Shown here: positions 19,374-55,024 of the stretch, piece after piece
Numbering within the stretch: the first letter of the stretch is position 1
Layout of the letters: each line of letters opens with the position of its first letter
Origin: Somniosus microcephalus
Taxonomy: Eukaryota
Length of the DNA: 64,000 nucleotides
Direction of reading: 5' to 3'
Assembly: GCA_052327205.1 (NCBI GenBank)
Contig: CM126206.1
Location: forward strand, 37,448,001 to 37,512,000
Notes under the pieces: generated by a model
Told to the model about the DNA's origin: nothing
What the model saw: only the letters and a program-made list of their open reading frames with translations
Database searches by the model: none
Program-made: the position numbers and the translations under genes

Positions 19374-20630
19374 AGGCCAGAAATTTAATTTGGAGGTGGG
19401 TAGGGACCAGAGGGGCTGGAAAGCAGTTGGGAAACCCGAGAGAACGGGTTTTCCACAGGCCCTGATTAACGGCAGGACCTGATTAGCATTTAGAATCACT
19501 GTTTCCCACCCGTAGCCAGCCAGCTGGAGAGGCTGGGTGGCCGTCGGGTGTGTAGGCCTGCGGCACCAGGCCGCAGAGAGGAGGGAGAGTGGTATTGGGG
19601 GGGGGCAAGGAGGTAATTGGAGACTGGAGGGGGGTAGGGGGCCAGAGGGGGGAGGTTGGAAGGCTGGAGAGGGGTAGGGGGCCAGAGGGGGGTAGTCGGA
19701 AGGTGATTAAGGGCCGAAGGGGGAAAGTCAGAAGGCCGGAGGGTGATCGGAGGCCAGAGGAGGGAGGTTGGAAGGCCGATGGCTAATTGGGGGCCAGAGA
19801 GTGGGGAGCTCAGAAGGCTGTTGGGGGATCGGGGGCCAGAGGGGGGATGTCGGAAGGCCGGAGGGGGATCGGGGGCTGGAGGGGAGAGCTCAGAGAAGGC
19901 CGGAGGGATTGGGGGCCAGCGGGGGGAGGTCGGAAGGCCAGAGGGGGATCAGGGGCCGGAGGGGAGAGCTCGGAAGGTTGGAGAAGGATTGGGGGCCGGC
20001 GGGGGGAGGTCGGAAGGCTGGAGGGGGATTGGGGGCCGGAGGGGAGAGTTCGGAAGGCCGGAGGGGGATCAGGGGCTGGCGGGGGAGGTCGGAAGGCCGA
20101 GGGTAATTGGGGGCCAGCGGGGGGAAGTAGGAAGGCCGGGGTGCGGGTATTGGGATCCAGAGGAGGATTGGGGGCTGAGGATCGAAGGCCGGAGGTGGGG
20201 ACCGGGGATCGGAGGCCTCGTCGGAGAGGTTGGAGGTCTCGGTGTGAGGTCAGGGGGAGATCAGAATGGTCGTGGGGTGTCCGACTGTGGGGGGTTGGCG
20301 AGGCAGGAACGCTGGATCCAGCAGATAAGTGTAAAGGCACTTACCTCCTGGATCCAGCAGTCCTTGCCTCCCTTGAGCTGGTGGGTTCCCCGATGCCTGG
20401 GAAACCCGGTGCTCACTGTTAAATTAAAAATGATGGATCACTATGAGGCATGGAGCCTCATTATAATATTTAAAGTGCCAACCCACCTCCTGCGAGCGGA
20501 TTGGTTAGCCGCCTCCATTAAAACCGAAAGTGGGCGGGTTGGAGGTGGGTTGGAGTCAGTATTCAGACTTTTAAATTTTAACCTCCCATCTGACCCCAAT
20601 CCACCCGTTGTTTGGGGTTAAAATTCCCCT
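19374..20630. mobile_element. Probable PIF/Harbinger-like non-autonomous element containing a G-rich minisatellite
   Basis: Imperfect TIRs aggccagaaatttaa / ttaaaattcccct, with CAC on both flanks (possible 3-bp TSD). Confidence 0.5.
19590..20240 (+). repeat. G-rich minisatellite, ~39-bp unit
   Basis: Repeated gggggatcggggggccagagggggaggtcggaaggccgga-like units. Explains the overlapping Gly/Arg-rich ORFs. Confidence 0.85.
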
Positions 20631-29174: not shown

Positions 29175-29648
29175 ATAATCATTCTTGGGATGTGGCATCG
29201 CTGGCAAGGCCAGCATTTATTGCCCATCCCTAGTTGCCCTTGAGAGGGTGGTGGTGAGCTGCCTTCTTGAACCACTGCAGTCCGTGTGGTGAAGGTACTC
29301 CCACAGTACTGTTAGGGAGGGAGTTCCAGGATTTTGACCCAGTGACGATGAAGGATCAGCGATATCTTTCCAGTCAGGATGGTGTGACTTGGAGGGAAAC
29401 TTGGAGGTGATGGTGTTCCCGTGCACCTGGTGCCCTTTCCTTCTAGGTGGTAGGGGTTGCGGGTTTGGGAGGTGCTGTCAAAGATGGGAGGTGTTGGGAG
29501 ATTTGCATCAATGTAATGAAATTTCTGCTTCATGGTAAATCAACATTAAAATGATAACTTGGTGTCAGATTGGTGTTCTGACTCCCAAAGTGCATTATAA
29601 GGAGGTTTGGGAGCTGTTGTCGAAGAAGCCTTGGCGAGTTGCTACAGT
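29175..29648 (-). mobile_element. LINE 3' fragment that is the integration target of the provirus (continues at 46404-46470)
   Basis: The joined flanks gccttggcgagttgcta-cagt-gcatcctgt match the reverse complement of the uninterrupted copy at ~27355-27390. Confidence 0.8.
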
Positions 29649-30817
29649 TGTAGGATTCGCAAAATTGAACATTGTCCTATAAGGGTCTATTGGCAGAAAA
29701 GGCCTTAATTTTTAAAGACTGTTTTAAAAGAAGCCCAGAAAAAGGGGCACACAAAATGGCCGCCAGAACCCGTGACCAGCTTTTTGGGACATTTTAAAAT
29801 GGTTCCTGCAGTCCACAGACAGCTTTTGTGGATTCAGCCCACAGTAAGTTCTGGAATGCAATTTCGGAGAATGCGAAACCAGACAGAACCCCATACATAT
29901 GGATTGGATGCAGATCCAATCAGATCGGCCTGTAGATAAAGGCCATCAAAATGTTTACCCAGACAAAGGGAAACAGCCTCAAGTTCAAAGGGGGACATCA
30001 AGACCCATTAAAGACAATACAAGGTCATTCCAGACCAGAGATGGCAGTTACCGGCCATCCGGAAAGTACTTTAAACACAATGACTACCCCTCTGTGCTAC
30101 AAGCCCGCCAAAATTTAAACAAAGACTAACCTTCATATGGCAGGAGATAAGGGCCTCCATGAGAAGTATAACTGAAGACCTGGGGTAGCCATTAGGTGTT
30201 CAAGTTCAGAGAGAGAGCAGTGCGGAAGAGCAAGAACAGCATTGTAGAGATAATTTTGGAGAGATCGTTCGGGGGTCCGAAGAAGGTGCAGTTCGGTTAG
30301 GAGTTCGGGTTCGGTAGAGAGGCTGTTCAGACTCGGAAGAAGAAGACGATTCGGTAGATGTTTGGGATTGGAGACGTTTTGAAGACTCAAACTGGGACTG
30401 GTGAGCATGTTTCTGGCCCCTCATAATCTAATTTAGCTAGGTTTAGGGGGTGGGCATTTTAGGGGATAATTAACAATGAGTTGCTATCCCTCGATGTTCC
30501 GTGTGTTTCCCTATTTCATGGTGAACCTTGTAAAGTATAATATGCCTGTGGATATATTGGTTAGTACTGTATTATGATTTGTTTTTCCCTCCCATGTACC
30601 TTATTGGCTTACATTCAATTTTTCCTTTATGCAATAAAATTTCACTTCATTTCATTAAACTTGGTCTACAGAGTATTCTCTGCATTGTAGTTCCTGCCTC
30701 AAAGTCCAATGTACAGAACCTAAGGGGTGAGTGGGTCAAACCACTCGGTAAATTACTGTGCAAAAGAGAGAGAGGTCTCACCAGAGAGAGAGCCCTGGCA
30801 AAAAAAAAAACCTTACA
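29649..30817 (+). repeat. 5' LTR (1169 bp)
   Basis: TG...CA termini, direct repeat of 40691-41605 plus 46153-46403, AATAAA at ~30633, GGTGAGT donor-like site at 30726. Confidence 0.95.
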
Positions 30818-30821
30818 GAAA

Positions 30822-32648
30822 ATGGCGACCGCGGCAGGACACTGGCAGCAGGATTGCAATGTATTAGACCCAGGTTTAAATGGACGAAATGTTATGGATG
30901 AGAGGATAGCGGATTATGTTTTTGGTAAGGTAAATCTCACTAAACAGTGGATTTCCGATCTCTTACTGGATGGGCATCCGGTAGACGCAGCCGTCAGGTG
31001 GACAGAGAGTAAAGAACATAAAAAGTCAGTAGAGAAGGCAGTGTGGCTGATGTGCTACAAAAGACAAGTCCAGATTTTGGACAGAGTCGTTGCAGCGCAG
31101 GCAGCCAAGACCAAAACCCAGGCATCAGAAATAGAGGAAAAGGCCATGGGTGGAGAAAAGCTGATCGCAACGCTTCACGCGCTGAATCAGGAATGTCAAA
31201 CTGTAGCCAGTCAACATCAGGCTAAAGTAGAGTACCTGGAATGCCAGGTTACTGAGGCAAAGATTCATGAAGCGAGAGTACGGGAGAAAAGCGCCCGCCT
31301 CGCACAACAGCTAAGAGTGCAGGAGGAGAAAGTAGTGGAGGTTAAGGCAACTTACAAGCTGGCCACCGAGCAGGGATTTGAAAGCAGAGACCACGGCCCC
31401 TGCCAGAAGGCTGTAGAAGACCTAAGAATGGCCCTGGCTAAGGCAAAAGGCATGCTGTGCCTAGTAAGCCTGAAGGAATCCAAAAAACCGATTCCACGTG
31501 AAGTAGTTGTGGCACCAGCCACTGAACCCTCAGCACCGCCGAGCTGTAGTGAGGTTTGGCCCAAAGGGGGGGTGGTAGAACAGGAGGAAGAACAACCCCC
31601 GGTAGTGAAGCCGGAGCCGGCACCAATGTGTCCTGCTCGGCACCGGAGGTACGGTCCCGCCGCCGCAAATGGCGATGACGGACCCCTCCAGAACCATCTC
31701 ATACTGCCCCACAGTGCCCAACAAATCAGAGCGATGGTGAGCCACCTCCCAAAACTCTCCGAGAAGGGAGATCCCTCAGTCCATTTCAGGGAGATAGAGC
31801 AGACAGCCGCCATCAATGACTGCGATGGTCCAGGGCAGGCTAAGATGTTGCTATTCTCCCTGGATAGCACAATCCTTCAGTGCCTCTCAGACGGGAGTAA
31901 GAGGGGGCAGAAAGGGTATGAGGAACTCTGGGACGAGGCCCTGGAGGTTACGGGAGTGGACGACGGCAACCCGTTCCTCCGTGTGGAAGGGACTAAGCAG
32001 CTAACTGGAGAGCCCCCACGGGTTTTCGCAGAAAGGCTGTGGCCAGTGTATTGGCGCAGCTGTCCGGGCATGCCTGAACGGGCTGCAATGAACGATGTCC
32101 AGCGGGTTTATTGGCTCCGCTGCCTGGTTGCCAACAGCTTACCACAGGTACAGGCCCAAGCCAAATCTTGGTTTGACCCCCAAGGTCCCGGTACCACAGA
32201 GGAGACAGTGCTCCGACAGCTCACCATTGCATATAAGAATTGCAGGGGTCAGGAGGCACCTACCTCTAAGGGAAAAGTGCATGAGGCAAAACCCGCAGCC
32301 CCAAGTAAAAAGGAGTGGCATCAGGAAGGGAATTGCCCTCCCCAGGCCAAGCTCAATTGCTACGGGTGTGGGAAGGATAGACATTGGCGCAGGGACTGTA
32401 AAAATCCGTGAAAGGATAATAAGGGAAAATCTCCCGCAGCCCAAGCCCAAGCCCAGACCGCCGCCCCAGCACGAGTCCAGGTCCAAGCCGCAGCCCCTGT
32501 CCCAGGAAAAGGAGCCGGTGCAGCTATAGATCCCGCTGCGATAGAATCAATTTTAGAGATAATGCGGTCTCTTATGATCTCACAGGGGAAGATAGCAGTC
32601 ACCACCGGTCCCGTCGTTCCCGCGGCCCCGACCGCTCTACCCCAATGA
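30822..32648 (+). pseudogene. gag: Gag (coiled coil, capsid with MHR-like motif, CCHC knuckle) with one internal stop at 32409
   Basis: Heptad-rich region, KQLTGEPPRVFAERL, CYGCGKDRHWRRDC. The frame stays open after TGA 32409 through an Ala/Pro-rich tail to TGA 32646. Confidence 0.85.
30823..30840 (+). promoter_or_regulatory. Primer-binding site, tRNA-Arg(UCG)
   Basis: TGGCGACCGCGGCAGGAC is the reverse complement of ...GTCCTGCCGCGGTCG-CCA, the vertebrate tRNA-Arg(TCG) 3' end as I recall it. Located 5 nt after the LTR. Confidence 0.85.
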
Positions 32649-33361
32649 CTAGAGCCAGCGCAGCCCGTTTACCTGTGTTCGTTGCAATATGATTTATGGA
32701 GGCGACCCCTCGTGGAGATGGAGGTAGAGAAGGTAAAAGGGACCTATCTGTTGGATACGGGGGCATTGTGCACCGTGATCCACACGGCTAACCCTACCAC
32801 CTCACCTCTGTCCACATGGGTTCTATATATTCTGTCGGGCTCCACGGGCAAAGAACAGGCTGGCGCATTCTCCATCCCCCTCTCCATTCATTTAGGACCA
32901 CTCTGCACCACGTGAAAGTGTGTACTGATGAAGTGGGAGGTGGAGGGTGGAAAAGGGATCTTGGGTCCGATTTCTTAGTAGAACACGGGATCCTTGTGGA
33001 TCTTAGAAATCGCTGTCTCTGGGGAACGAGTACGGGTAAGAAAGGCAGAAAGGGTTCCAAGGTAAACCCAAAGAAGGCACGGATCGGCCAGCAGGAAGTA
33101 AAATTCCTGGGTCTGACCATCCGCGCTGGAGAGAGAGCCATAGACAAGGCTAGACGGGAACCGGTGCAAGACCCACCAGTCCCCACCACCTACGCAGTGA
33201 AGTTGCCCCGGCGCACTAAATGGTTTCACGTAAACCAGTGCAAACTATTTAAGCTGGGAGCAAAAGAGCCAACAACCGAAGCCAGGTCTGAGGGTAAAAA
33301 TCCTCAGCCTGAGGCGTGCAAAAGTCACAGACCACACAGGCTGGCGCCGCAGCCTGCTTGA
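32649..33361 (+). pseudogene. pol: Protease plus internally deleted pol (RT primer-grip/thumb fragment fused to the integrase C-terminal domain)
   Basis: YLLDTGA and ILGSDFL (with a stop and a 1-nt frameshift), then KVNPKKARIGQQEVKFLG, then TYAVKLPRRTKWFHVNQCK. No YxDD, RNase H or DDE core. Confidence 0.85.
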
Positions 33362-33954
33362 GGGGAGGAGCTATCCCGCTTACCTGGGAGGTTTCCCCAT
33401 TGGCCTGGGACTCGGACAAGGAAGAGCCTGAAGACCAAGGCCCTCCCCCTGACCCGAGCACAGTTAGGGGGGAGCCCGAACAGCTAGGCCCCGCCCCTGA
33501 CACGATTCTGGAGGAGGTGAAGTCGGAGGACGGAGGTCCCGCCCTCGGCTCAAGCTTAGGGGAGGTAGAACTTGGGGGTGGAGATTCTCCACCTGTAGGG
33601 ACAGGTAGGGAGGAGTCGTCTGTCACAGACCCAAATCCCAAAGGGGCGGAGTCTGAGGGAAGGGAGCTGAAGCCGATAGTCGTGGAGAAGCCATGGGCTG
33701 TGAGGGCTAAAGTCCCAACCAAAGGTCCACTCGCAAAGGGAGCCTCGCCCGAAGTACCCCCTCGCAGGTCGTCTCGGACGCCTCAGCCAATAAAACTCTG
33801 GCCAGATTCCCCCTACTTCAGCAGACACCGACTTGGGAAATCCCTAGAAAGACGCAGTCCCCAATTGGCAGCAAAAGGCTGCGGGGGACTCAAGCTACAG
33901 GTCAGTGCAGCCCCGCCACAGGGAGCGGTGAGCTGCAGTCCGAACGGGGATTAG
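33316..33954 (+). CDS. Pro/Glu/Gly-rich ORF between IN and env: disordered integrase tail or accessory protein
   Basis: 212 open codons containing PPRRSSRTPQP, which resembles RRSxR tails of LTR-element integrases. Confidence 0.4.
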   Translation: MQKSQTTQAGAAACLRGGAIPLTWEVSPLAWDSDKEEPEDQGPPPDPSTVRGEPEQLGPAPDTILEEVKSEDGGPALGSSLGEVELGGGDSPPVGTGREESSVTDPNPKGAESEGRELKPIVVEKPWAVRAKVPTKGPLAKGASPEVPPRRSSRTPQPIKLWPDSPYFSRHRLGKSLERRSPQLAAKGCGGLKLQVSAAPPQGAVSCSPNGD

Positions 33955-34194
33955 GCAGGCCGCCCGGGGACGGGCGGCACTGTACATAAGTTTAGTTAAG
34001 TTTAAGTTTGGTTAAGTATAAGGTGTGTAAATTTTTAAGGTGATGGGTGTTATAAGAAATAGTTTTAGAATCTGCCCAGCATGTGTGTTTGTTTTGGATC
34101 GAGGTCGAAAGACCCGATCATGCCTTCACCTAGGCCAGAATCTCTCGGGAGCCTGGCTGTATCGTTTTAATCTGTTGCAGGAACCAAAGGTACC

Positions 34195-36542
34195 ATGGAG
34201 AGGATTCTCATCGTGTTCGCGGTGATCGGGTGTAGCTTGGCCTATCGGGGCTACACCAAGGACTCCATCGTGTATGGATGCTCCGGGGACACAGCCCCAT
34301 CGCGACTGATGGGACAGGTGAACGGGACGTTGAGGAAACAGCCACCTACTTCCACGAAGGGAGGTGGCCAGGATGGCTGGGGTCGAACTCTACGGAATAC
34401 TCCAGCCAGTCCGGGTTTGCATACGGAGAGACATCTCTAATGTGTCCCAGGGTGAGGATCATCGCGCCCAAGGTCAGCGTCACCGTCAGGAGGAAGATTT
34501 GTTTAGTATGCAACGGACATGTTCCTTTGGACAGATGGTGGTGGCTTCGGAAGCTGAGTAAGACCATGAAAAACTCCACGGTCGAGTGGGAGCGACTGGG
34601 TAACAATACCCATCAGACTATTATGGGGACTCATGGGGGATTGAGTGTCTGTTGGGACAAATGATGGGAACCAGATGAGGGGATTTGTATCTGCATGTGG
34701 GGTTCAGAATGCGTCTGCCCCACAGGCGTCTCCATCTTTTTCCAGAGACAGTGGCAGGATGCTGGGAAAGGGATGAGGTGGGACATCAGCACGCAGGCGT
34801 GCGGAGTCCCATGCTCTCCGATCCCGGTGAATGCCACTGAGCTCATCACCCACCCCCGCAAGCCCCTGCCCACGATTCCGGTAGCCAAAGCCCGCAAGGA
34901 AGGGTGCCCCGCCACTACCAAGGGACCCGGGAACGGACTGGTATTGGTACCCACAGGTCAGGTGCTGTACCAAGGGGTGCACTACATGGTAGCCTCGGTG
35001 ATTTTAAACCTCACCGAGGTGCGATTGCCAGAGTGGTGCCCCAAGGAAACGGAGCAATTGTACCAGGTCCTGTTAACAAATATGTTCAGACAATTTTATG
35101 AGTTCGACTTTGCCGATGTCGAAAGAGCCGGATTGTACACCACACCACATGAGGTCTTGGACAGGGTAGGGAGACAAAGAAGGGGTACAGTGAATGATAT
35201 TTTTACCGCCTTTAACTCAGGGACTTCTGTCATCAACACTCTGGATGATGTGGAGCTGCAGTCCCAGATCAATGGTTTAAAAGCGTGGTTAAGAAAGATA
35301 CTGACGGACGGGAATAAGGTAGTGGGTTCTGAGTTACATGAGGACCAGGCCATGACACTACACTTAAAAGAAATCATAGCTGAGCTGGAGAAACACGCTA
35401 AAACGGTAAATGCTCTCATCAGAGAGGATCGGAATGCGTCAGATCAGGCTGCGCAGAACGAGGCATACGTGCTGTATGGGGCGTGGTTACTGGGCGAGGG
35501 CAGCAGTAATCTGGAGGATTTAAAACAAGGTTTGGTCCCCTCCTGGATCAGCAATAAGCACCTCGCAGCCCTCCACCCTTTTGAGAATGCATTAAGTCTG
35601 TGCCAGCTCAGATTAGCTTCAGAGGCCTACCCAGTCCCAGTGGACTGTGGGCGGTCTAATCACACCATTATGGGTATAGTGGTAAGAATGCCGGTTATGG
35701 GAAAGACAGCTAAACCCGCCCGGTATACAGGGTGGAGAACATTGGAGTCATTCAAGGGGGTGCACACATTCGCTACACAGCGGTCCCACCTTACATCATT
35801 CGATGGGAGCATGCAATGATGGGTACCAACCTCTCGGGGTGCTGGAGCCGGGGACCACACATCATCCTGTGTCCCCAGCAATTGAATGCCTATTCGAAAC
35901 CACAGTGCGGGTTCAGAACTGCTGGTGCGAAGCCTATAAATTGCACCATGGAGGCAATGGCACAAAGCCATGTGCCCCCGCAGGTGGCATATATAGGAGG
36001 TGGGACATACTGTGTCACCACTGCAGCGCCCCACTACCAACATGGACAGCGGCTGGTGTCCGGTCAGTGACAGCAGTTTCTGCTTCAAACCCAAGGCAGA
36101 AGTTCAAGTGGCCCAAGAGCGAATTGTCCCTATTCCTGAACCTTCCACTGTTCACCTCACTGTCAAAGAAAATTTCACCGATCTGCAACGATTCGTTGCA
36201 CATTTTGGCTACGTCATTCCCCCTCTCCCTGAACACCTCACCAAGATACTAAAAGCCGTTGCCTTTTCACAGAAACATTTTTACAAGCTGGAGCAGAAGA
36301 CATTAGAAATAGGGGCAGACATATTAGATATAGTGAGCCAACAGTGGTGGGACCTGTTCACTAATATAGAAGTCCCTTCATGGATTAGGATAGCCTCCCA
36401 CATCCTCATAGTATGTCAGATTTTTATTGTGATTTATTTACTCTTTGTACATTGTAAGAGGGACAAACGTTTCCAGAAGTATGAGAACAGAGGAGAATGG
36501 AGGGAGCATTATGTGCGGGTAGACGAGGAGACACCCATTTAA
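34195..36542 (+). pseudogene. env: Envelope glycoprotein, class I F-type fusogen-like (~780 aa reconstructed; ~3 frameshifts and 1 stop)
   Basis: Splice acceptor ttttaatctgttgcAG at 34180, signal peptide MERILIVFAVIGCSLA, furin site RQRR (35172-83), heptad region, Cys-rich domain, WWDLF, TM ILIVCQIFIVIYLLFV and a short tail. Confidence 0.85.
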
Positions 36543-36784: not shown

Positions 36785-39700
36785 ATGTACACTGTTCACG
36801 AGTTGTTCACGCCTCAGGGTAGGGCTGCACAGGGGGTGACCATCAGGCGGAGCAACAGAGGCAGGCAGGAAGTGCAGGGAACCCCTGCGGACATCCCCCT
36901 TTCAAACAGGTATACCAAGTTGGATACTGTTGAGGGGGATGACTCACCAGGGGAAGGCAGCAGCAGCCAGCTTCCTGGCACCAGGGATGCTTCTGCTGCT
37001 CAGGAAGGGAGGAAAAAGAGTGGGAGAGCAATAGTGGTAGGGGATTCTATCGTAAGGGGAACAGATAGGTGTTTCTGTGGCTGCAAACGTGACTCCAGGA
37101 TGGTTTGTTGCCTCCCTGGGGCCAGGGTCATGGATGTCACTGAGCAGCTACAGGGCATTCTTAAGGGGGAGGGTGAGCAGGCAGAGGTCGTGGTCCACAT
37201 TGGGACCAACGACATAGGTAGGAAGGGGGATGAGGTCCTGCATCAAGAATTTAGGGAGCTAGGTAACAGATTAAAGGGCAGGACCTCAAAGGTTGTAATC
37301 TCTGGATTACTCCCAGTGCCACGTGCTAGTGAGTATAGGAATAGGAGGATAGTGCAGAAGAATGCGTGGCTAAAGAGTTGGTGTAGGAGGGAGGGTTTTA
37401 GTTTCCTGGATCACTGGGCCTGCTTCTGGGAAAGGTGGGACTTGTACAAGTCGGACGGGTTGCACCTGAACCAGAGCGGGACAAATATCCTTGCGGGGAG
37501 GTTTGCTAGCACTGTTGGGGGGGGGTTTAAACTAACTTGGCAGGGGGATGGGATACAGAGGGGAGCTGAAATAGGGGGTGATGTGCTGCCAATTATAGAG
37601 AAAAAAACAAGTCAGCTTGGTAGACAGGGCAAATATATAAGGGCAAGGCTGGATGGCATCTATTTTAATGCAAGGAGTCTTGCAAATAAGGTGGATGAAC
37701 TGAAGGTGTTGATAAACACATGGGAGTATGATATTGTTGCTATCACGGAGACATGGTTGAGGGAGGGGCAAGACTGGCAGCTCAATATTCCGGGGTACAG
37801 AATCTTCAGGCGAGACAGAGGGGGAGGTAAAAGAGGAGGGGGTGTCGCAATATTAATTAAGGAGTCAATTACTGCAGTAAGGAGGGATGATATATTAGCA
37901 GGTTCCTCTAATGAGGCCATATGGGTGGAGCTTAAAAACAAAAAGGGGGCAAGCACTTTGCTGGGAGTGTACTATAGGCCTCCAAACAGTCAGGGGGAGA
38001 TAGAGGAACAGATATGTAGGCAAATCTCAGAGAAACGTGCAAATAATAGGGTAATAATAATGGGGGATTTCAACTTCCCCAATATTAACTGGGATAGTCA
38101 AAGTGTGAAAGGCTCAGAGGGTGTAGAATTCTTAAAGTGCATCCAGGAGAGCTTTTTGAGCCAGCGTGTAGAAAGTCCTACAAGAGAGGGGGCAGTACTG
38201 GACCTAATTCTAGGGAATGTGGCCGGCCAAGTGGAAAAAGTGCTAGTAGGTGAGCACTTTGGTGACAGTGACCATAATATGGTGAGATTTAAGGTGGTCA
38301 TGGAAAAGGACAGGGATGGGCCGGAAATAAAGGTTCTAAATTGGGGGAAGGCCAATTTTAATAGGATAAGGCAGGATCTGGCCAAAATGGACTGGGATCA
38401 GCTACTTGTAGGAAAATCCGCATCGGAGCAATGGGAGACTTTCAGAAGGGAGATTGAGATCATACAATGGCAACATGTTCCCGTAAAGGTCAAGGGTGGT
38501 TCCAAAAACCACAGGGAACCTTGGATGTCAGGGGATATACGAGAATGGATTAGGAAAAAAAGGAGGGCTTTTGGCAGATACAAAAGGCTAAAGACGGAGG
38601 AAGCCCTAGAGGAGTACAAAAAGTGCAGGGGGATAATTAAAAAAGAAATTAGGAGATCAAGGAGGGGCCATGAAATAACATTGGCGAGCAAAATAAAGGA
38701 AAATCCTAAGATGTTTTATAAGTATATTAAGGGTAAGAGGATAACTAGGGAAAAAATAGGGCCCATTAGGGACAAAAGTGGCAATCTGTGTGTGGAGCCG
38801 GAAGATGTAGGAGGGGTTCTAAATGAATTTTTTGCATCTGTTTTCACTATGGAGGAGGACGATGTAGACATAGAAATAGAGTGGGGGGACTGTGATATGC
38901 TCGAACATATTAACATCGAGAGGGAGGAGGTATTGGCGGTTTTAGCAGGCCTAAAAATGGATAAATCCCCAGGCCCGGATGAAATGTATCCCAGGCTGCT
39001 GTGTGAGGCAAAGGAAGAGATTGCGGGGGCTCTAACACATATATTCAGGACCTCTCTGGCCACAGGGGATGTGCCAGAGGACTGGAGAACTGCTAATGTA
39101 GTAACATTATTCAAGAAGGGAAGTAGGGAAAAACCGGGGAACTACAGGCCAGTGAGCCTAACATCAGTGGTAGGACAATTATTGGAAAAAATTCTGAGGG
39201 ACAAAATTAGTCTCCACTTGGAGAGACAAGGATTAATCAGGGATAGTCAGCATGGCTTTGTCAAGGGAAGATCATGTCTGACTAATTTGATTGAATTTTT
39301 TGAGGGGGTGACCAGGTGTGCGGATGAGGGTAACGCAGTGGATGTGGTATACATGGATTTCAGTAAGGCCTTCGATAAAGTCCCGCACAGGAGACTGGTC
39401 AAGAAGGTAAGAGCCCATGGAATCCAGGGTGCCTTGGCACATTGGATACAAAACTGGCTTAGTGGCAGAAGGCAGAGGGTGATGGTCGAAGGTTGTTTTT
39501 GTGACTGGAAGCCTGTGGCCAGTGGGGTGCCACAGGGATCGGTGCTGGGTCCCTTGCTGTTTGTGGTCTACATTAATGACTTGGATATGAATGTAAAAGG
39601 TATGATCAGTAAGTTCGCGGATGATACAAAAATTGGTAGGGTGGTAAATAGCGAGGAGGGTAGCCTCAGTCCACAGGACGATATAGATGGGTTGGTCAGA

Positions 39701-40453
39701 TGGGTGGAACAGTGGCAAATGGAATTTAACCCGGAAAAGTGCGAGGTGATGCACTTTGGGGGGACTAACAAGGCAAGGGAATACACAATGAATGGTAAGA
39801 CCCTAGGCAAGACGGAGGTGCAGAGGGATCTGGGTGTGCAAGTACACAGATCCCTGAAGGCGGCGGAACAGGTGGATAAGGTGGTAAAAAAGGCATATGG
39901 GATACTTGCCTTCATTAGCCGAGGCATAGAATATAAGAGCAAGGAGGTTATGATGGAGCTGTATAAAACACTGGTTAGGCCACAGCTGGAATACTGTGTG
40001 CAGTTCTGGTCGCCACACTACAGGAAGGATGTGATCGCTTTGGAGAGGGTGCAGAGGAGATTCACCAGGATGTTACCAGGGCTGGAGCGCTTCAGCTATG
40101 AAGAAAGGCTGGGCAGATTGGGTTTGTTTTCCTTGGAGCAGAGGAGGCAGGGGGGGGACATGATTGAAGTGTACAAAATTATGAGGGGCATAGATAGGAT
40201 GGATACTGAGGAGCTTTTTCCCTTAGTAGAAGGGTCAATAACTAGGGGGCATAGATTCAAGGTAAAGGGCGGGAGGTTTAGAGGGGATTTGAGAAAGAAC
40301 CTTTTCACCCAGAGGGTGGTTGGAGTCTGGAACTCACTGCCTGAAAGGGTTGTGGAGGCAGGAACCCTCACAACTTTGAAGAAGCATTTGGATGAGCACT
40401 TGAAATGCCATAACATACAAGGCTACGGACCAAATGCTGGAATATGGGATTAG
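36785..40453 (+). CDS. Fused CR1 ORF1 esterase-ORF2 endonuclease/RT, 1222 aa uninterrupted
   Basis: GDS/GTND/DGLHL, NARS/TETW/GDFN/SDHN and PQGSVLGP/FADD in one frame. The fusion results from a 9-G run at 37517-37525. Confidence 0.85.
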   Translation: MYTVHELFTPQGRAAQGVTIRRSNRGRQEVQGTPADIPLSNRYTKLDTVEGDDSPGEGSSSQLPGTRDASAAQEGRKKSGRAIVVGDSIVRGTDRCFCGCKRDSRMVCCLPGARVMDVTEQLQGILKGEGEQAEVVVHIGTNDIGRKGDEVLHQEFRELGNRLKGRTSKVVISGLLPVPRASEYRNRRIVQKNAWLKSWCRREGFSFLDHWACFWERWDLYKSDGLHLNQSGTNILAGRFASTVGGGFKLTWQGDGIQRGAEIGGDVLPIIEKKTSQLGRQGKYIRARLDGIYFNARSLANKVDELKVLINTWEYDIVAITETWLREGQDWQLNIPGYRIFRRDRGGGKRGGGVAILIKESITAVRRDDILAGSSNEAIWVELKNKKGASTLLGVYYRPPNSQGEIEEQICRQISEKRANNRVIIMGDFNFPNINWDSQSVKGSEGVEFLKCIQESFLSQRVESPTREGAVLDLILGNVAGQVEKVLVGEHFGDSDHNMVRFKVVMEKDRDGPEIKVLNWGKANFNRIRQDLAKMDWDQLLVGKSASEQWETFRREIEIIQWQHVPVKVKGGSKNHREPWMSGDIREWIRKKRRAFGRYKRLKTEEALEEYKKCRGIIKKEIRRSRRGHEITLASKIKENPKMFYKYIKGKRITREKIGPIRDKSGNLCVEPEDVGGVLNEFFASVFTMEEDDVDIEIEWGDCDMLEHINIEREEVLAVLAGLKMDKSPGPDEMYPRLLCEAKEEIAGALTHIFRTSLATGDVPEDWRTANVVTLFKKGSREKPGNYRPVSLTSVVGQLLEKILRDKISLHLERQGLIRDSQHGFVKGRSCLTNLIEFFEGVTRCADEGNAVDVVYMDFSKAFDKVPHRRLVKKVRAHGIQGALAHWIQNWLSGRRQRVMVEGCFCDWKPVASGVPQGSVLGPLLFVVYINDLDMNVKGMISKFADDTKIGRVVNSEEGSLSPQDDIDGLVRWVEQWQMEFNPEKCEVMHFGGTNKAREYTMNGKTLGKTEVQRDLGVQVHRSLKAAEQVDKVVKKAYGILAFISRGIEYKSKEVMMELYKTLVRPQLEYCVQFWSPHYRKDVIALERVQRRFTRMLPGLERFSYEERLGRLGLFSLEQRRQGGDMIEVYKIMRGIDRMDTEELFPLVEGSITRGHRFKVKGGRFRGDLRKNLFTQRVVGVWNSLPERVVEAGTLTTLKKHLDEHLKCHNIQGYGPNAGIWD

Positions 40454-40542
40454 ATTAGACAGGGCTTGATGGCCGGCACGGACACGATGGGCCGAAGGGC
40501 CTCTATCTGTGCTGTTTAACTCTATGACTCTATGACTCTATG
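36796..40542 (+). mobile_element. CR1 LINE (5'-truncated) inserted between env and the 3' LTR
   Basis: Esterase-EN-RT coding sequence, (GACTCTAT)n tail at 40520-40545, possible TSD actgt. Confidence 0.95.
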
Positions 40543-40681
40543 ACTGTGGGTTTTTTGAAATGGGAAATGCATGTGTCATAGGGTCATAGATAGGTAAATA
40601 CAGGGGATGATTTGATTATGGAGAGTCAGAAAATTTTGCTCACCCAGAATTATGATACTTCAAGCAAGTTATAGTATCATC

Positions 40682-40690: not shown

Positions 40691-41929
40691 TGTAGGATTC
40701 GCAAAATTGAACATTGTCCTATCAGGGTCTATTGACAGAAAAGGCCTTAATTTGTAAAGACTGTTTTAAAAGAAGCCCAGAAAAAGGGGCACACAAAATG
40801 GTCGCCAGAACCCGTGACCAGCTTTTTGGGACATTTTAAAATGGTTCCTGCAGTCCACAGACAGCTTTTGTGGATTCAGCCCACAGTAAGTTCTGGAATG
40901 CAATTTTGGAGAATGCGAAACCAGACAGAACCTCATACATATGAATTGGATGCAGATCCAATCAGATCGGCCTGTAGATAAAGGCCATCAAAATGTTTAC
41001 CCAGACAAAGGGAAACAGCCTCAAGTTCAAAGGGGGACATCAAGACCCATTAAAGACAATACAAGGTCATTCCAGACCAGAGATGGCAGTTACCGGCCAT
41101 CCCGAAAGTACTTTAAACACAATGACCAATCCTATGTGCTACAAGCCCGCCAAAATTTAAACAAAGACTAACCTTGATATGGCGGGAGATAAGGGCCTCC
41201 ATGAGAAGTATAACTGGAGACCTGGGGTAGCCATTAGATGTTCAAGTTCGGCGAGAGAGCAGTGCGGAAGAGCAAGAAGAGCATTGTAGAGATCATTTTG
41301 GAGAGATCGTTCGGGGGTCCGAAGAAGGTGCAGTTTGGTTAGGAGTTCGGGTTCGGTAGAGAGGCCGTTCAGACTCGGAAGAAGAAGACGATTTGGTAGA
41401 CGTTTGGGATCGGAGACGTTTTGAAGACTCAAACTGGGACTGGTGAACATGTTTCTGGCCCCTCATAATCTAATTTAGCTAGGTTTAGGGGTGGGCATTT
41501 TAGGGGATAATTAACAATGAGTTGTTGCCCCTCGATGTTCCATGTGTTTACCTATTTCATGGCGAACCTTGTAAAGTATAATATGCCTGTGGATACATTG
41601 GTTAGTGTTATGTTCATTAATAACTAGTCGTTTTTATTAAGAACAGCTAGCTTTTGCTAGACACTTTATTGAGCACATGTGGACTAGATACAGTATCTGT
41701 AGAGGCCTCCATCTTGACTGCTGCCTTGTCGGTAGCCTAGTGCATCGTGGGTAGCCCACTCTTATATACATACAGCACCACCTAGTGTACCATTCCAGAA
41801 TGACAGGTTACTGATCATTACATCCCCCTTTCTTTGAGGTTAAACAAAATCAGTATCAATCAATATCAATCAATAACAACATAAACATCTTCAACAGTCA
41901 ATACATTTTCAATGTAGTTTTCTTTGTAC

Positions 41930-44900
41930 TCAAAGATTAAGTCTATCAGGCTTTTTTACTTCACGTGTGGATCCTCTCAGCACAGGTAAGTCTGATGTGT
42001 TTTCTTGAGAGCCTGTATGTGTATTTGTGTTAGATTGTTCTGGTGGTGAGTGACAAGATTCAGTTGCGGCATTGTCATCGATTTGCTCTTCGATAGTCTC
42101 TTGTGTTTTTAGGAGGGAACGGCGGTTTCTCCTGAGAATCTGTCCTTCCTCAGTTCTAACAGTGTATGACCTTGGTCCTACTTCCTCAAGAACTGTAGCT
42201 TTCCTGTTCCATGCATCTGGATCCTCAATCCTGACAACATCATCCCTCGTCAATGGTTTCAGAGTTTTGGATGACTTGTCATAGTATGATTTCTGTTTCA
42301 GCTTTAACAGTTGAAGTCTCTGTCTCAGTTCCTTACTCTGCTTTTCTTTTGCACAGCAGGGTAGCGTGGTACAGAACTTGCGACCCATTAGGAGTTCAGC
42401 AGGTGAAGAACCACAGTCTAAAGGTGAGGCTCGGTAGCTCAGCAGGGCGAGATAAGGATCAGACTTGCTTTCTGTCGCTTTCTGCAGTAGCTGCTTGAGA
42501 ACTTGAACACCTTTCTCTGCCTTACCATTCGACTGAGCATACAAAGGACTGGATGTGATATGTTGAAAGTCATAATGTGCTGCAAACTGTTGCCACTCCT
42601 TACAGTTGAAGCACGGACCATTGTCACTAACGGCAATCCTGGGAATTCCATGTCTGACGAAGATGGATTTCACATGCATTATGACACTGCTTGCTGTGGT
42701 GCTTGAGAGCAGCGCCATCTCAGGATAGTTAGAATAGTAGTCAATCACTATTAGATAGTCTTTACCATTTAAATGAAAAAGGTCCATACCAACCTTTTGC
42801 CATGGTGCTGTTGGTATGTCAGCTACTATCATTGGTTCCTTTCCTTGTTTGTTTTGGTGTTTCTGACATGTCTCACATTTGCCTATCATGTTCTCAATGT
42901 CCTTATTTATGCCAGGCCAATAAACAGTGTCTCTTGCTCTCCTTTTGCATTTTTCAATTCCGAGGTGTCCCTCATGAATCCTTTTGAGCATGTCTTGACG
43001 TAGAGCCTGTGGAATGACTATTCTGTTCTGTTTCAGTAATAGTCCACTTGCGACACTCAATTCTGACCTTATGTCAAAATATTTTGGACAGGAACCTTTT
43101 GGCCAACCATGATGAATGTTCTCTATTACTGTTTGTAATACTGTATCTTTTACTGTTTCTTCTGCTATTTGCATTGATTTTGTGTCTGACACGGGCAGCG
43201 CAGCAGTGACCATACTCACATGAACATCCACGTCTTCTTCAGTAGAGCTCACATGACTCATTGTGGGTGCTCGGGATAGTGCATCTGCTAACACTATGTA
43301 TTTGCCTGGTGTGTAGATCAGTTCAAAGTCATATCTTTGCAGCTTCATCATGAGTCGTTGAATCCTTGGAGACATCTCATTCAGGTTCTTTTTTATGATG
43401 GCAACCAATGGGCTGTGGTCTGTCTCAACTGTGAAGGTGGGAAGTCCATATATGTAGCCATGAAACTTTTCTAGTCCAACTACCAAGCCTAGACATTCCT
43501 TTTCAATCTGGGCGTATCGACACTCAGTATCAGTCATAGACCTGGAGGCATAGGCAACAGGCTTCCAATCTTCACCCTCTGCTTGTAGCAAGACCGCACC
43601 CAGGCGATCTTTTGATGCATCCGTTGACACTTTGATTCTTTTTGTTGGGTCAAAGAAGGTGAGTACAGGTTTGGTTGTCAGCACTGTTTTGAGGTTTATC
43701 CACTCTTGTTCATGTCTTTCTGTCCATGCGAACTCATTTGTTTTATGTAGCAGGTCTCGCAGACAGGCTGTCTTGGCTGACAAGTTAGGAATGAACTTTC
43801 CAATGAAGTTTATCATCCCCATGATGCGTAGCACTCCTTTTTTGTCAGTGGGTCGGGGCATTTTGAGTATGGCATTTACTTTTTCCATATCTGGCTCTAT
43901 TCCTTTACCAGATAGATTATCTCCTAGGAAAGTGACTTCCTGGATGCCAAACTGACACTTGGCTTTGTTGAGCTTCAGTCCATTCCGGCATATGCTGTGT
44001 AGCACTTTAGTCAGTCTCTCATTGTGTTCTTTCAGTGTGGAGCCCCAGATGATGATGTCATCAACATAGACCTGAACTCCTTCCAGACCTTCAATTATGT
44101 GTTCCATCACTCTATGAAAGATTTCAGATGCAGATATTATCCCGAAAGGCATTCTGAAGAAACAATACCTGCCAAATGGTGTGTTGAAGGTACAGTATTT
44201 GGTGCTCTCTTCAGCCAGTTTTAGTTGCCAAAATCCTTGTGAGGCATCGAGCTTTGTGAAGTATCTGGCACCTGACATTTCACTGGTGATTTCTTCTCGC
44301 TTGGGAATCTGGTAGTGTTCACGTTTTATGTTTGCATTTAAGTCCTTTGGATCCATGCATATTCTTAGATCATTGTTCTTTTTCTTTACATATACCATGG
44401 AGTTAACCCAGTCTGTTGGCTCTTCGACTTTCCTGATGACTCCTAGAGTGGTCATTCTGTCCAGTTCATTCTTGAGTTGTTTACACAGGGGTGCTGGAAC
44501 TCTTCGTGGAGCATGTACCACTGGCTGAGCATCCTCCTTTAGCTGGATCTTGTTAGTGAATGGTAGAACTCCAAATCCTTTGAACACATCCTGGAAATTA
44601 TTCACTACAGAATCCACCGAGTCATCTGGTCTGCTTATGGCACAGTTTATACGGTAGACTCTCTTGACCAGTTCTAAGTCCTCACAAGCTTTGTCACCCA
44701 GTAGTGAATCAAGTCCTTCAGCCACAACAGAAAACATGAGATGATGCACTTTGTCTTTGACTGTCACTTTAAGTCTGCATACACCTAAGCTATCTATTTT
44801 CTGTCCATTATAGTCCTTCAGTAGTACTGACTTTTTCTGTATTTTGGACTTTTCTTTCATATTTTTAATGTCACTCATACTGATTAAATTTGCTTTTGCC

Positions 44901-45229
44901 CCAGTGTCTAGTTTCAATGTAACTAATGCTCCATTTACCTGCAGTGGGATCATCCATTTGTCCTCTTTTACTGCATTGACTTTATGTTCAGCATTGTTAA
45001 TTCCTGAGGGCTGCACATTTTCTGTATCCTTTTTGATATTGTCACATGACACCATTCCTACAAAACATGTCTCACTTAAATCAGTGTCCTCAATTACATT
45101 AACTCGTTGCCCTTTCGTAGTTTTTCTTTTGAAAAGCATTGTTTGGCAAAGTGATTCTTTCCATGACATTTTGTGCACATTTTTCCAAACGCTGGACATT
45201 GTTTCAACTGGTGTTTGTAGCCACAGCAT
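41930..45229 (-). CDS. pol: Gypsy pol: PR-RT-RNaseH-IN, 1099 aa open
   Basis: LDTGA, YVDD, TDAS..EKE..TDH, HEGH..CETC, DLF..SDNG..AEKGV. Confidence 0.95.
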   Translation of the reverse strand: MLWLQTPVETMSSVWKNVHKMSWKESLCQTMLFKRKTTKGQRVNVIEDTDLSETCFVGMVSCDNIKKDTENVQPSGINNAEHKVNAVKEDKWMIPLQVNGALVTLKLDTGAKANLISMSDIKNMKEKSKIQKKSVLLKDYNGQKIDSLGVCRLKVTVKDKVHHLMFSVVAEGLDSLLGDKACEDLELVKRVYRINCAISRPDDSVDSVVNNFQDVFKGFGVLPFTNKIQLKEDAQPVVHAPRRVPAPLCKQLKNELDRMTTLGVIRKVEEPTDWVNSMVYVKKKNNDLRICMDPKDLNANIKREHYQIPKREEITSEMSGARYFTKLDASQGFWQLKLAEESTKYCTFNTPFGRYCFFRMPFGIISASEIFHRVMEHIIEGLEGVQVYVDDIIIWGSTLKEHNERLTKVLHSICRNGLKLNKAKCQFGIQEVTFLGDNLSGKGIEPDMEKVNAILKMPRPTDKKGVLRIMGMINFIGKFIPNLSAKTACLRDLLHKTNEFAWTERHEQEWINLKTVLTTKPVLTFFDPTKRIKVSTDASKDRLGAVLLQAEGEDWKPVAYASRSMTDTECRYAQIEKECLGLVVGLEKFHGYIYGLPTFTVETDHSPLVAIIKKNLNEMSPRIQRLMMKLQRYDFELIYTPGKYIVLADALSRAPTMSHVSSTEEDVDVHVSMVTAALPVSDTKSMQIAEETVKDTVLQTVIENIHHGWPKGSCPKYFDIRSELSVASGLLLKQNRIVIPQALRQDMLKRIHEGHLGIEKCKRRARDTVYWPGINKDIENMIGKCETCQKHQNKQGKEPMIVADIPTAPWQKVGMDLFHLNGKDYLIVIDYYSNYPEMALLSSTTASSVIMHVKSIFVRHGIPRIAVSDNGPCFNCKEWQQFAAHYDFQHITSSPLYAQSNGKAEKGVQVLKQLLQKATESKSDPYLALLSYRASPLDCGSSPAELLMGRKFCTTLPCCAKEKQSKELRQRLQLLKLKQKSYYDKSSKTLKPLTRDDVVRIEDPDAWNRKATVLEEVGPRSYTVRTEEGQILRRNRRSLLKTQETIEEQIDDNAATESCHSPPEQSNTNTHTGSQENTSDLPVLRGSTREVKKPDRLNL

Positions 45230-45897
45230 TTACAATTAAAAATTCCTTCCTCCGATTGCTTTTCACTTCTGTTCTGCCCATGTTTCTTCCCCTTGTAGGA
45301 CACAGCACCGACAGCAGCACTTACTGCAATTGCATCATCATTGATTTCACTGAAAGTCTTGGCATCCTTTTGAGCTAGCTCGCTAGCTTGGCATATTTTC
45401 ACATCAATTTCCAATGTTAGTTCAGTTTCTCTCAACAGACGTTCCCTGGCTTTTTTATCATGAATACCAAACACAATCTGGGCACGAATTATGGATGCTT
45501 TCAGCTCAGAGAAATTACATATCTGTGCTTTCAGTTTCAGATCCGTCAAAAAGCTATCAAAAGTCTCATTTTGCTGCTGTGTCTGAGAGCGGAAGATGTA
45601 CCTCTCATAGGTTTCATTCTTTTTGGGAGAACAATGTGTATCAAACTTCTTTAGCACATCGTCTAATTTTTCTCTGTTCTCCTCTGGATTAAATACAAAT
45701 GTATTAAATACATCTATCGCCTGTGGGCCTGCAACCATGAGCAGCAACACTATTTTCCTTGCATCTGGCTTCATACCGTACCCGATGGCAGCAATGTAGA
45801 GTTTGAATTGTTGTTTAAAAGTCTGCCAATTGTAGCCGACATTTCCTGTGAGTTTCAAATGCTCTGGTGGCTTCAAATTCTCCATGTCACGTTGCAC
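45094..45897 (-). CDS. gag: Gypsy gag with double Cys/His knuckle; pol lies in the -1 frame
   Basis: MENLKPPEHL..NWQTFKQQF, QQQNETFDSF, CKCCGYKH...CPAFGKMCTKCHGKNHFAKQC. Confidence 0.9.
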   Translation of the reverse strand: MQRDMENLKPPEHLKLTGNVGYNWQTFKQQFKLYIAAIGYGMKPDARKIVLLLMVAGPQAIDVFNTFVFNPEENREKLDDVLKKFDTHCSPKKNETYERYIFRSQTQQQNETFDSFLTDLKLKAQICNFSELKASIIRAQIVFGIHDKKARERLLRETELTLEIDVKICQASELAQKDAKTFSEINDDAIAVSAAVGAVSYKGKKHGQNRSEKQSEEGIFNCKCCGYKHQLKQCPAFGKMCTKCHGKNHFAKQCFSKEKLRKGNELM

Positions 45898-47280
45898 AAT
45901 ATTCAGCAGATCTTACCAATCCTGGTACCATGTTATGTTCATTAATAACTAGTCATTTTTATTAAGAACAGCTAGCTTTTGCTAGACACTTTATTGAGCA
46001 CATGTGGACTAGGTACAGTATCTGTAGAGGCCTCCATCTTGACTGATGCCTTGTGGGTAGCCTAGTGCCTCGTGGGTAGCCCACTCTTATATACATACAG
46101 CACCACCTAGTGTACCATTCCAGAAAGACAGGTTACTGATCATTACTGTTAGTACTGTATTATGATTTGTTTTTCCCTCCCATGTACCGTATTGGCTTAC
46201 ATTAGTTTTTCCTTTATGCAATAAAATTTCACTTCGTTTCATTAAACTTGGTCTACAGAGTATTCTCTGCATTGTAGTTCCTGCCTCAAAGTCCAGTGTA
46301 CAGAACCTAAGTGGTGAGTGGGTCGAACCACTCGGTAAATTACTGTGCAAAAGAGAGAGAGGTCTCACCAGAGAGAGAGACCTGGCAAAAAAAAACCCTT
46401 ACACAGTGCATCCTGTGGGCAGTACATACTGCAGCGACGGTGCGCCGGTGATGGAGGGAGTGGACATTTAAGGTTTCAGAGAGGAACGTGAGTCAGTGCT
46501 TTCAGGACAAGAAGAGAAAAAAATTGGAGGGGGAAAGGAAAAGAACATTTAAAAGATGAGTATATATCCTGTGGTATTTCTCAGTGTGTATGGGGTGTGA
46601 CTTGGAGGGGAAGTTGGAGGTGATGGTGTTCTCATCTGTCTGCCTTTTGAGCAGTATCTGTCAGACCTTAAGTATCAAACATGCAAAATATCAACTTGAG
46701 AGGTATTGCTACGGTGGGGTGTGTGGGGGTGGATTGTGATGCACATTACTTGGAAATGAGTTTGTGAGAGTTGTGTTCAAGCAATAGAGAAATTTTGAAT
46801 AGCTTTTCGAAAATTTGAGTCACAGTATTTTTTTTGTGAGCAGTCTTTGCATGTGTGACAAGCACATGCTGAACATATGACTTTCACATATATAACTCTC
46901 CCATAGGGTTGCTTGTGGATTAAACAATGAGTACATGAGTAAGTCTTCCTCACCCAATGCAGGTAGATAAATGAAGAATTAAATCGATTCCACTCACATA
47001 GCACAGTCACATCATCAATAAATAAATCTGTGCATGTTAGTTTCCATTCCATCAATAAACAGCTCTTCTCCCCTGGCCGAACACATCTCTCACAAACTCA
47101 TTGAATGTTGCATCATTTTTACTGTCAAAGTTACCTCAGATAAAGTTTTGATGCTCTCATGTAAAGCAATTGATAGCTACTGTCACAGTTCCAATAATGG
47201 CTTTGTGGCTTTCAGTTCGGTCTGTTCTCAATGCTACTCTATCACTAGATAAGAAAGGGGGCAAGACTTACAAACAGCAA

Positions 47281-53882: not shown

Positions 53883-55024
53883 TATCGCTCCCACGGCCTA
53901 AAGTAAATTAGAACCGGCTGGCCTAGATTTTTCCAACCGCCGTGGTGAAAGAGTTAACAAACTGTGAATTACAACTTTCATAATCTATTTAGCACCCTAC
54001 TCCATATCGACGTCTGTCAATGGAAGATTATGAGTGGGTACTGCTTTGTATGAGACATGAATAGGTAATGTGTGATGAATTATTTTATTGTTCATGTATA
54101 CAATACGCAAAGTAAAGGCTCATTTCACTCATATCCTGTCATTTATAACTATTAAATGTGCACTGGATTTTCTTTCATTTTCAGATGTATAGAGACCATT
54201 ATGCTGGCTTAAAGCTCTTCAAACAGTTTGAACTCAGCAATATGCTAACATTGCACCGAAAATGTAACCTTTGAATATTTAGACAATACCAGTGGAAGTT
54301 GATATCACAGAACCTTAATTTCCTGCATATGTGAATTATGGTGACGAGGGCCTTAGAAAAGGTTGTTTTCTTAGTTTCCTTTGCCTTTGCAGGCCACTTT
54401 CCGCAATTCCACCTGCTTCTGTTGGAAGGGTGTGACGGGTCTCAGCGCAACAATCTCCCCGATTGCTGTCGATGTCACTGCATGAATACTTGAGAGAAGA
54501 GGCCAGGCAATGTAGAGCAAAGTAGAGATGGTCAGAAATCTCCCACCAGCCCCACTGCCCCTTGCACCTTCACCTGCAGTCTTCCCCTGATTGGTGCTTA
54601 GCAAATAACAACGACAGGCACACATATAGTGCCTTTAACATAATAAAATATCCCTAGCCATGTCATGCAAGAAAGCAGGCAAAGTGGCAGTAGGTTGAAC
54701 ACGCGGTCAAAAATGTACGTTTTAAGTTTACTTTGCGCTTTTTTTAATTGCTTTTTTTAAATAATAGGGCCAAATTTTCATCCTCCCATTGCGTAGGAAC
54801 AGGCCAGTAGTGCCATGAAAATAGCAATGCAGCACTTACAGCCTCGTTCCCTCTGATGTCCAGGTCACTGCCATGTTGGATGTGGGTTCTTGAAACGCAC
54901 GGTCCAGGCACCTAAAGGATACGGGGGAGCCTCATCAGGTGATGATGCAAATCAGGGTCATTTGTGGTCAATAGGACCGTGATGTCATTTTGAAGTACCA
55001 ATGGGTGGAGCGAGGCCCCATGTA

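Follow-up and report, generated by a model that had tools for sequence, protein, structure and literature searches.

The window analysed here, 64,000 nucleotides of the Somniosus microcephalus genome, contains a broken endogenous retrovirus whose features are collected in Table 1. In fuller copies of the element the protease, RT, tether, RNase H and integrase all lie in the gag frame, and the overall layout is that of the Retroviridae (LTR-PBS-gag-pro-RT-tether-RNase H-IN-env-PPT-LTR), with an RT that falls within the retrovirus clade. The zinc knuckle (zf-CCHC) of a sister copy exceeds the Pfam cut-off, and ARAGORN calls tRNA-Arg(tcg) at two of the three primer-site matches that were fetched. 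Most of the RT, RNase H and integrase is deleted in the window copy and its protease is disrupted by a stop (32913-32915) and a frameshift near 32960; this copy has lost the ability to make Pol. Many copies of the window's family lack the same internal part of pol, beginning after about 33190, and because so many share this one deletion we conclude from the copies that a deleted, non-autonomous form was amplified with its junction and env retained. The pol tail behind the integrase (33316-33996) is acidic and proline-rich, about 210 residues long, and gave no Pfam match. Matches of Env to PF00523 are under the cut-off (E 0.051 and 0.2), although its nearest Atlas clusters are F-type (score 0.94); the AlphaFold model of Env has a pLDDT of 28.7, and the Env homologues found were five proteins, only in skate and sawshark.

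Table 1. Features of the endogenous retrovirus and of later insertions into it (window coordinates).
Feature	Position	Strand	Remarks
Target-site duplication CAGT, 4 bp	29645-29648 and 46404-46407		flanks the provirus
5' LTR (TG...CA)	29649..30817	+	96.3% and 96.1% identical to the 3' LTR halves
Primer-binding site, complement of tRNA-Arg(TCG) 3' end	30823..30840	+	reverse complement at 366 genome places
gag	30894..32645	+	start 30894 presumed by comparison with a second family; ends in an Ala/Pro-rich tail behind a CCHC knuckle (32358-32399)
Premature gag stop, private to few copies	32409..32411	+	2/30 copies
gag-pro junction CAA-TGA-CTA-G	32643..32652	+	conserved core A-TGA-CT(A/G); 36 codons upstream of protease Asp
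Protease, gag frame	32649..33037	+	first in-frame ATG 32718; catalytic DTG 32754-32762
Predicted extended stem-loop	32658..32866	+	+13 to +221 from T of the stop; putative readthrough stimulator, moderate support
pol remnants	33047..33996	+	RT reduced to a short piece (33047-33190), followed by the C-terminus of integrase and a tail
env	34195..36542	+	reading frame interrupted by frameshifts and one stop; RQRR site of furin type; resembles F proteins of paramyxovirus type weakly
Later LINE insertion, not viral	36796..40542	+	between env and 3' LTR; long endonuclease-RT frame; sister copies join 36795 to 40543
3' LTR	40691..46403	+	interrupted at about 41607-46147 by a Gypsy element (- strand) inserted later

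At the boundary of gag and protease, CAA (32643-32645) is followed by TGA (32646-32648) and CTAG (32649-32652) on the + strand of the window. The original prediction had this CAA-TGA-CTAG end gag in frame with the protease, and so it reads: with TGA rendered as X, a single frame from 30822 passes through gag, the CCHC knuckle, the stop at 32409-32411 and the Ala/Pro-rich tail to the junction TGA, after which the same frame reads LEPAQPVYLCSLQYDLWRRP... on to LLDTGA. The piece downstream of the TGA is matched by Pfam RVP at E 0.00077 (20.2 bits; cut-off 20.7). As a chance background, of the 1037 TGA triplets on the + strand of the window, CTAG comes next after 4 and CTA or CTG after 32.

Is this TGA the inherited end of gag, or is it decay? 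A search of the 6.45 Gb genome yielded the closest copies (30 fetched, the best of 40 scored among 4510 candidates), and protease queries from two distant relatives added 60 further loci (30 of the 150 scored per query); the resulting 90 loci represent 89 distinct places, one place having been fetched twice, and include one tandem pair. TGA stands at the junction in 29 of the 30 closest copies, with a sense codon in the other, and in 87 of the 90 loci overall. The stop at 32409, which had been put down to mutation, occurs in just two of the 30 closest copies, the window copy and one other, as that claim would have it. Since the closest copies are about 96% alike, their TGA shows only that the source elements carried the stop. 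A codon-free junction pattern had 136 matches in the genome, with TGA in 100 of the 100 matches listed, a figure biased to little-changed copies because the pattern demands exact flanks. Contigs of two other organisms span the junction, and of the 40 rows listed out of 84 none falls at 32646-32652, to which we attach little weight.

The loci sort into six lineages that are 65-86% identical over 550 nt, in a clustering that left out two singleton clusters as likely rearranged and joined a third to its nearest cluster. A-TGA-CT(A/G) is present in all six, including the A that precedes the TGA, at a constant 36 codons from the protease Asp and behind a gag tail that is itself variable. Across the 90 loci the junction heptamers are TGACTAG (49), TGACTGA (21), TGACTAA (8) and TGACTGG (7), the remainder being two loci with TGA and an altered +4 or +5, two with a sense codon and one in which the junction is missing; TGA-CT(A/G) is found in 85 of the 90, UGA-CUA in 57 (the window copy included) and UGA-CUG in 28. 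What had been claimed to be conserved was the seven-letter vertebrate motif UGA-CUAG, and this must be narrowed to the core A-UGA-CU(A/G), as the complete CUAG occurs in only three of the six lineages (49 of the 90 loci) and the other three have UGA-CUG-A, UGA-CUA-A and UGA-CUG-G. Six longer stretches came from other families, and in five of them the TGA is immediately followed by a pol frame of 1354-1454 codons (the sixth yielded no reading). Because the TGA is kept across six lineages whereas the 32409 stop is private, the comparison of copies confirmed the TGA as the inherited gag stop of this broken retrovirus and not as decay.

The codons behind the stop bear on how the protease was reached. 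The first in-frame ATG after the TGA is codon 24 (32718). Among seven representatives, codons 1-23 have a dN/dS of 0.22 and zero stops in the gag frame, close to the 0.24 of codons 24-79 in the protease, while the other two frames of codons 1-23 have values of 1.08 and 2.04 and many stops; all these ratios derive from pairwise counts, which are not independent. The Pfam protease match begins at residue 17, upstream of Met 24. Together, the dN/dS of 0.22 and the match from residue 17 indicate that the stretch between the stop and the ATG belongs to the protein and that ribosomes have to reach it from upstream. A single frameshift would not serve, since gag and pol are in one frame, and a splice acceptor at CTAG is argued against by the lack of conservation of its AG. 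Codons 1-23 were thus translated, most likely by readthrough. RNA reads of a related organism span the junction without a splice joint into pro; as they show no env splice joint either and most of them are less than 95% alike, this result has low power.

We conclude that the element very probably made Gag-Pro-Pol by programmed UGA readthrough at a leaky A-UGA-CU(A/G), with a predicted long stem-loop as a possible aid. That opal readthrough made Gag-Pol, the central claim of the original prediction, stands as the best explanation of an ancestral in-frame stop followed by codons with a dN/dS of 0.22. Most ribosomes would stop at the UGA and release Gag, and a minority would decode the UGA with a near-cognate tRNA and continue into protease, RT, RNase H and integrase, so that the share of readthrough would set the Gag : Gag-Pol ratio. 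The near-cognate tRNAs at UGA are those for Trp, Cys or Arg. As the +7 G is not conserved and CUG is reported in three lineages, which counts against this reading, the efficiency of readthrough may rest on other elements.

Could Pol instead have been expressed in the manner of foamy viruses, through a separate spliced mRNA or by initiation at ATG 32718, with the TGA a plain gag terminator? Foamy viruses do use a separate pol start (PMC8278194), the in-frame ATG is in strong context and present in 18 of 18 aligned sequences, and there are pyrimidine-rich AG sites at positions 32585 and 32652. We nevertheless consider this route improbable: the 23 codons ahead of the ATG are conserved as protein, and the protease match extends upstream of the Met; the AG at 32651-32652 is absent in three lineages, and an acceptor at 32585 would keep the TGA within the message. 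Less probable still is an origin of the TGA as a nonsense mutation in a once unbroken gag-pol, spread by non-autonomous copies, an idea largely refuted by the six lineages, down to 65% identity, that share the stop, some of them with long unbroken pol frames, and by the purifying selection on pol behind it. The family in the window is, it is true, largely pol-deleted, two of the 90 loci do have a sense codon, and ten lokiretrovirus entries headed gag-pol gene point to fused forms among relatives.

We rate as equally slight the chance of a stop-restart mechanism at an overlapping AUGA or of selenocysteine insertion at the UGA. The A kept before the TGA in all lineages does create AUGA, but the overlapping AUG is off-frame and opens only 11-15 codons in all seven representatives, and so cannot yield Pol. 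Some selenocysteine codons also consist of a UGA with a 3' stem-loop (PMC4132726), but Rfam gave no match, SECIS or other, at E up to 1 in three proviral stretches, one of which contained the 3' LTR.

If readthrough is accepted, what made the UGA leaky? Folding of the 100 nt downstream, as the original prediction had proposed, gave nothing (z +0.9 for +3 to +123), nor was there structure in folds of 50-155 nt past the stop (z +1.1; mean z -0.2 to +1.2). In folds of 230 nt, by contrast, the 30 copies on average form a nested stem from +13 to +221, a structure that takes about 220 nt. The predicted stem-loop is 209 nt long and opens 9 nt past the stop; in type II (UGA-CUA/CGG) signals the spacer is 8-12 nt. 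RNAalifold recovered the same stem from 18 copies spanning all lineages, with 67 pairs, 96% of cells paired and nine pairs changed on both sides. Of the 20 windows folded for seven representatives, none has a mean z as low as that of the 215-nt window at +10 (-3.7), although two RT windows reach -2.7 and -2.6. This window also leads the 20 in consensus energy (-57.5 kcal/mol) and in covariation term (3.5), but the 10 gag windows among them have gap-rich alignments that make them poor controls. Other measures set it less apart: the percentage paired is 94-97 in the 10 pol windows, with no distinction for the stem-loop window, two other pol windows likewise have nine pairs changed on both sides, and structure conservation is 0.63 here and 0.61 in one other pol window. 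A shuffle control, not corrected for kinship, reaches the observed number of double-changed pairs in 24 of 500 cases; four-fold sites are no more conserved within the stem (identity 0.62) than elsewhere in pol (0.68), and the stem-loop of the window copy itself folds weakly (z -1.3). The start at +13 agrees with the +9 to +16 of the stimulators of MoMLV, VEEV, SINV, CHIKV and CTFV given in Table 1 of PMC13517186.

We put at about an even chance that this predicted stem-loop serves as a readthrough stimulator which, placed at the mRNA entrance of the ribosome, would raise readthrough much as in alphaviruses. Within the readthrough explanation, a reading that we regard as plausible, though short of even, is that the short context alone drives readthrough and the stem-loop is a by-product or has a role in packaging or in some other RNA function. 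Its covariation resembles that of other pol windows and its synonymous sites are not extra-conserved, and for UGACUA a 3' structure is needed only conditionally, with no effect in PSIV (PMC13517186). Yet it is the stem-loop window that folds best in all the tests run, and its spacing is that of known stimulators.

The original prediction had also held opal readthrough to be unusual for retroviruses and potentially diagnostic of the lineage, and neither view survived comparison with known systems. UGA at gag-pro is already on record for SSSV (UGAAGA), ZFERV (UGACGA) and RMEV (UGAAGU) (PMC13517186 section 4.1.2), and XtERV-S has a TGA gag-pol stop (PMC8278194). These are fish and frog retroviruses, the first three epsilon-related and XtERV-S ERV-L/S-like, in which readthrough is presumed, as here; unlike our element, none is given with UGA-CUA or a downstream structure in the available parts of these sources, which leave out the context of XtERV-S. 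The same 2026 review, in its available parts, records UGACUA only for alphaviruses and a triatovirus, with no retroviral UGACUA, and describes retroviral readthrough as unverified outside gammaretroviruses; a term search of it found no mention of sharks or lokiretroviruses (PMC13517186). Among retroviruses opal readthrough is no peculiarity of this element, nor does the signal mark a single lineage.

The closest likeness in signal is to the alphavirus nsP3-nsP4 junction (Sindbis, VEEV, ONNV; Beier-Grimm type II), in which UGA-CUA or UGA-CUG likewise stands ahead of a polymerase; UGACUG is present in Trocara virus (PMC13517186). Alphavirus stem-loops start at +12 to +16 and span 126-177 nt (PMC13517186), compared with +13 and 209 nt in our prediction; however, alphaviruses are an unrelated family, and their structures have been tested and consist of two short paired arms round a long loop, whereas that of the element is predicted and is a nested stem. 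UGA-CUA alone gives 1.5% readthrough, and readthrough at UGA-CUAG, a tested motif, is documented for mammalian genes (PMC4132726); the vertebrate genes AQP4, OPRL1, OPRK1 and MAPK10 have the same UGA-CUAG heptamer as three of our six lineages (PMC4132726). Host genes hold UGA-CUA strictly, whereas the element varies between A and G at +6 and between G and A at +7. Gamma- and epsilonretroviruses (MoMLV, WDSV) have the same gene layout, which likewise serves to make Gag-Pro-Pol by suppressing the stop of gag, but MoMLV uses UAG-G with a 50-nt pseudoknot (PMC13517186), and the group belongs to a different RT clade.

The same signal recurs among lokiretroviruses. In the supplement of PMC7947760 at least four sequences have, by eye, TGA-CTA-G in frame with a protease motif (four of 17 TGACTAG matches), a lower bound because line breaks in that supplement can conceal TGACTAG. 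The junctions of Loki-Ofa and Loki-Cne were matched to an annotated gag end or pol start, and those of Loki-Pyo and Loki-Sau were assigned by file position. The ten entries headed gag-pol gene, i.e. fused, come from the same supplement, in which the pol frame of Loki-Bsp opens with CTG after a stopped gag. Stops and readthrough go unmentioned in the available text of the paper (Wang and Han, 2021; PMC7947760), which reports lokiretroviruses to be absent from three chondrichthyan genomes. Lokiretroviruses and our element both have an env that is weakly F-protein-like and a tether plus RNase H.

An RT tree of 55 rows, with SnRV not among them and with three eel proteins chosen by their PFGYANSP motif as the loki rows, nevertheless places the element within the retroviruses proper (100/97). 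There it groups at 95/93 with ERVs from frog and coelacanth, apart from both the gamma-/epsilon-like and the loki-motif rows. The tRNA-Arg primer site of the element corresponds to the tRNA-Arg primer of SnRV. Like the element, SnRV has an in-frame stop between gag and pro. By eye, the SnRV RT (PMC7947760 supplement) and that of the element share PTVA, LDISNGFWSI, QQYTW..LPQGFH.SP.IFHQ and QYVDD. To judge by these features the element looks snakehead-retrovirus-like (SnRV-like). Membership of the lokiretroviruses, which Env had suggested, was ruled out by an RT that lacks PFGYANSP and falls outside the loki-motif clade, and membership of the gamma- or epsilonretroviruses by the UGA stop and an RT outside that clade. 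The signal itself does not follow these boundaries, as the stop context of SnRV is UAGGGC (PMC13517186), against UGA-CU(A/G) in the element, and lokiretroviruses outside its clade carry TGA-CTA-G. SnRV-like ERVs are known in the elephant shark (CmiERV lineage I) and in the coelacanth, whose ERVs are mostly SnRV-like; gag-pol expression is not discussed in the available text of PMC4422223. The combination of an SnRV-like RT with an Env near F-type fusion proteins, a trait published for lokiretroviruses, is an observation in its own right.

Several aspects of the junction appear to be new, namely that a retrovirus has a type II context, that this context has natural variants, that a long stem is predicted downstream and that lokiretroviruses carry the same signal unremarked. 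Term look-ups in the available text of PMC9040795, PMC5210030, PMC10435555 and PMC12193657 found no gag-pol readthrough, and we found no published UGA-CUAG in a retrovirus or retrotransposon, no retroviral UGA-CUA and no account of this junction, in a literature that comprised few subscription papers, so an earlier mention is possible. Retroviral readthrough is understood almost only via the UAG and pseudoknot of MoMLV, and a junction preserved in six lineages, naturally variable at +6 and +7 and with a long stem predicted behind it, offers a ready series for studying the trade-off between context and structure. Lokiretroviruses are the sister group of all other retroviruses, and the same signal there bears on how Gag-Pol was first expressed. 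We tentatively suggest, as a possibility that we would not yet favour, that alphavirus-type readthrough (UGA-CU(A/G) with a long 3' stem-loop) is an undescribed Gag-Pol route of basal retroviruses, namely SnRV-like viruses of cartilaginous fish and a lokiretrovirus subclade. It might reflect convergence on the leaky vertebrate context or be an ancestral relic, with UAG-pseudoknot readthrough and frameshifting coming later. For annotation, the junction stop of such elements should not be taken as damage.

Some further observations concern the element and its surroundings. The LTR pair differs by about 3.7%. With the rate that PMC4422223 assumes for sharks (2.2e-10 per site per year), this would translate into a very uncertain age of roughly 80 million years. 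A larger related family, represented by 27,674 initial candidates for the protease query, includes many copies with pol frames of 1439-1454 codons, and in each of its five stretches that were read, gag, pol or env is broken or shortened. One fetched copy has a second gag-like stretch with a zinc knuckle (its positions 787-2953) behind pol, at the place expected for env; this is an element of another family, nested there or joined by recombination. Elsewhere in the genome tRNA-Arg(TCG)-like units form arrays with a spacing of about 1.6 kb, and the window itself contains a 31-bp tandem array at 54934-58000 and, at 19609-20084, a G-rich array of 40 bp.
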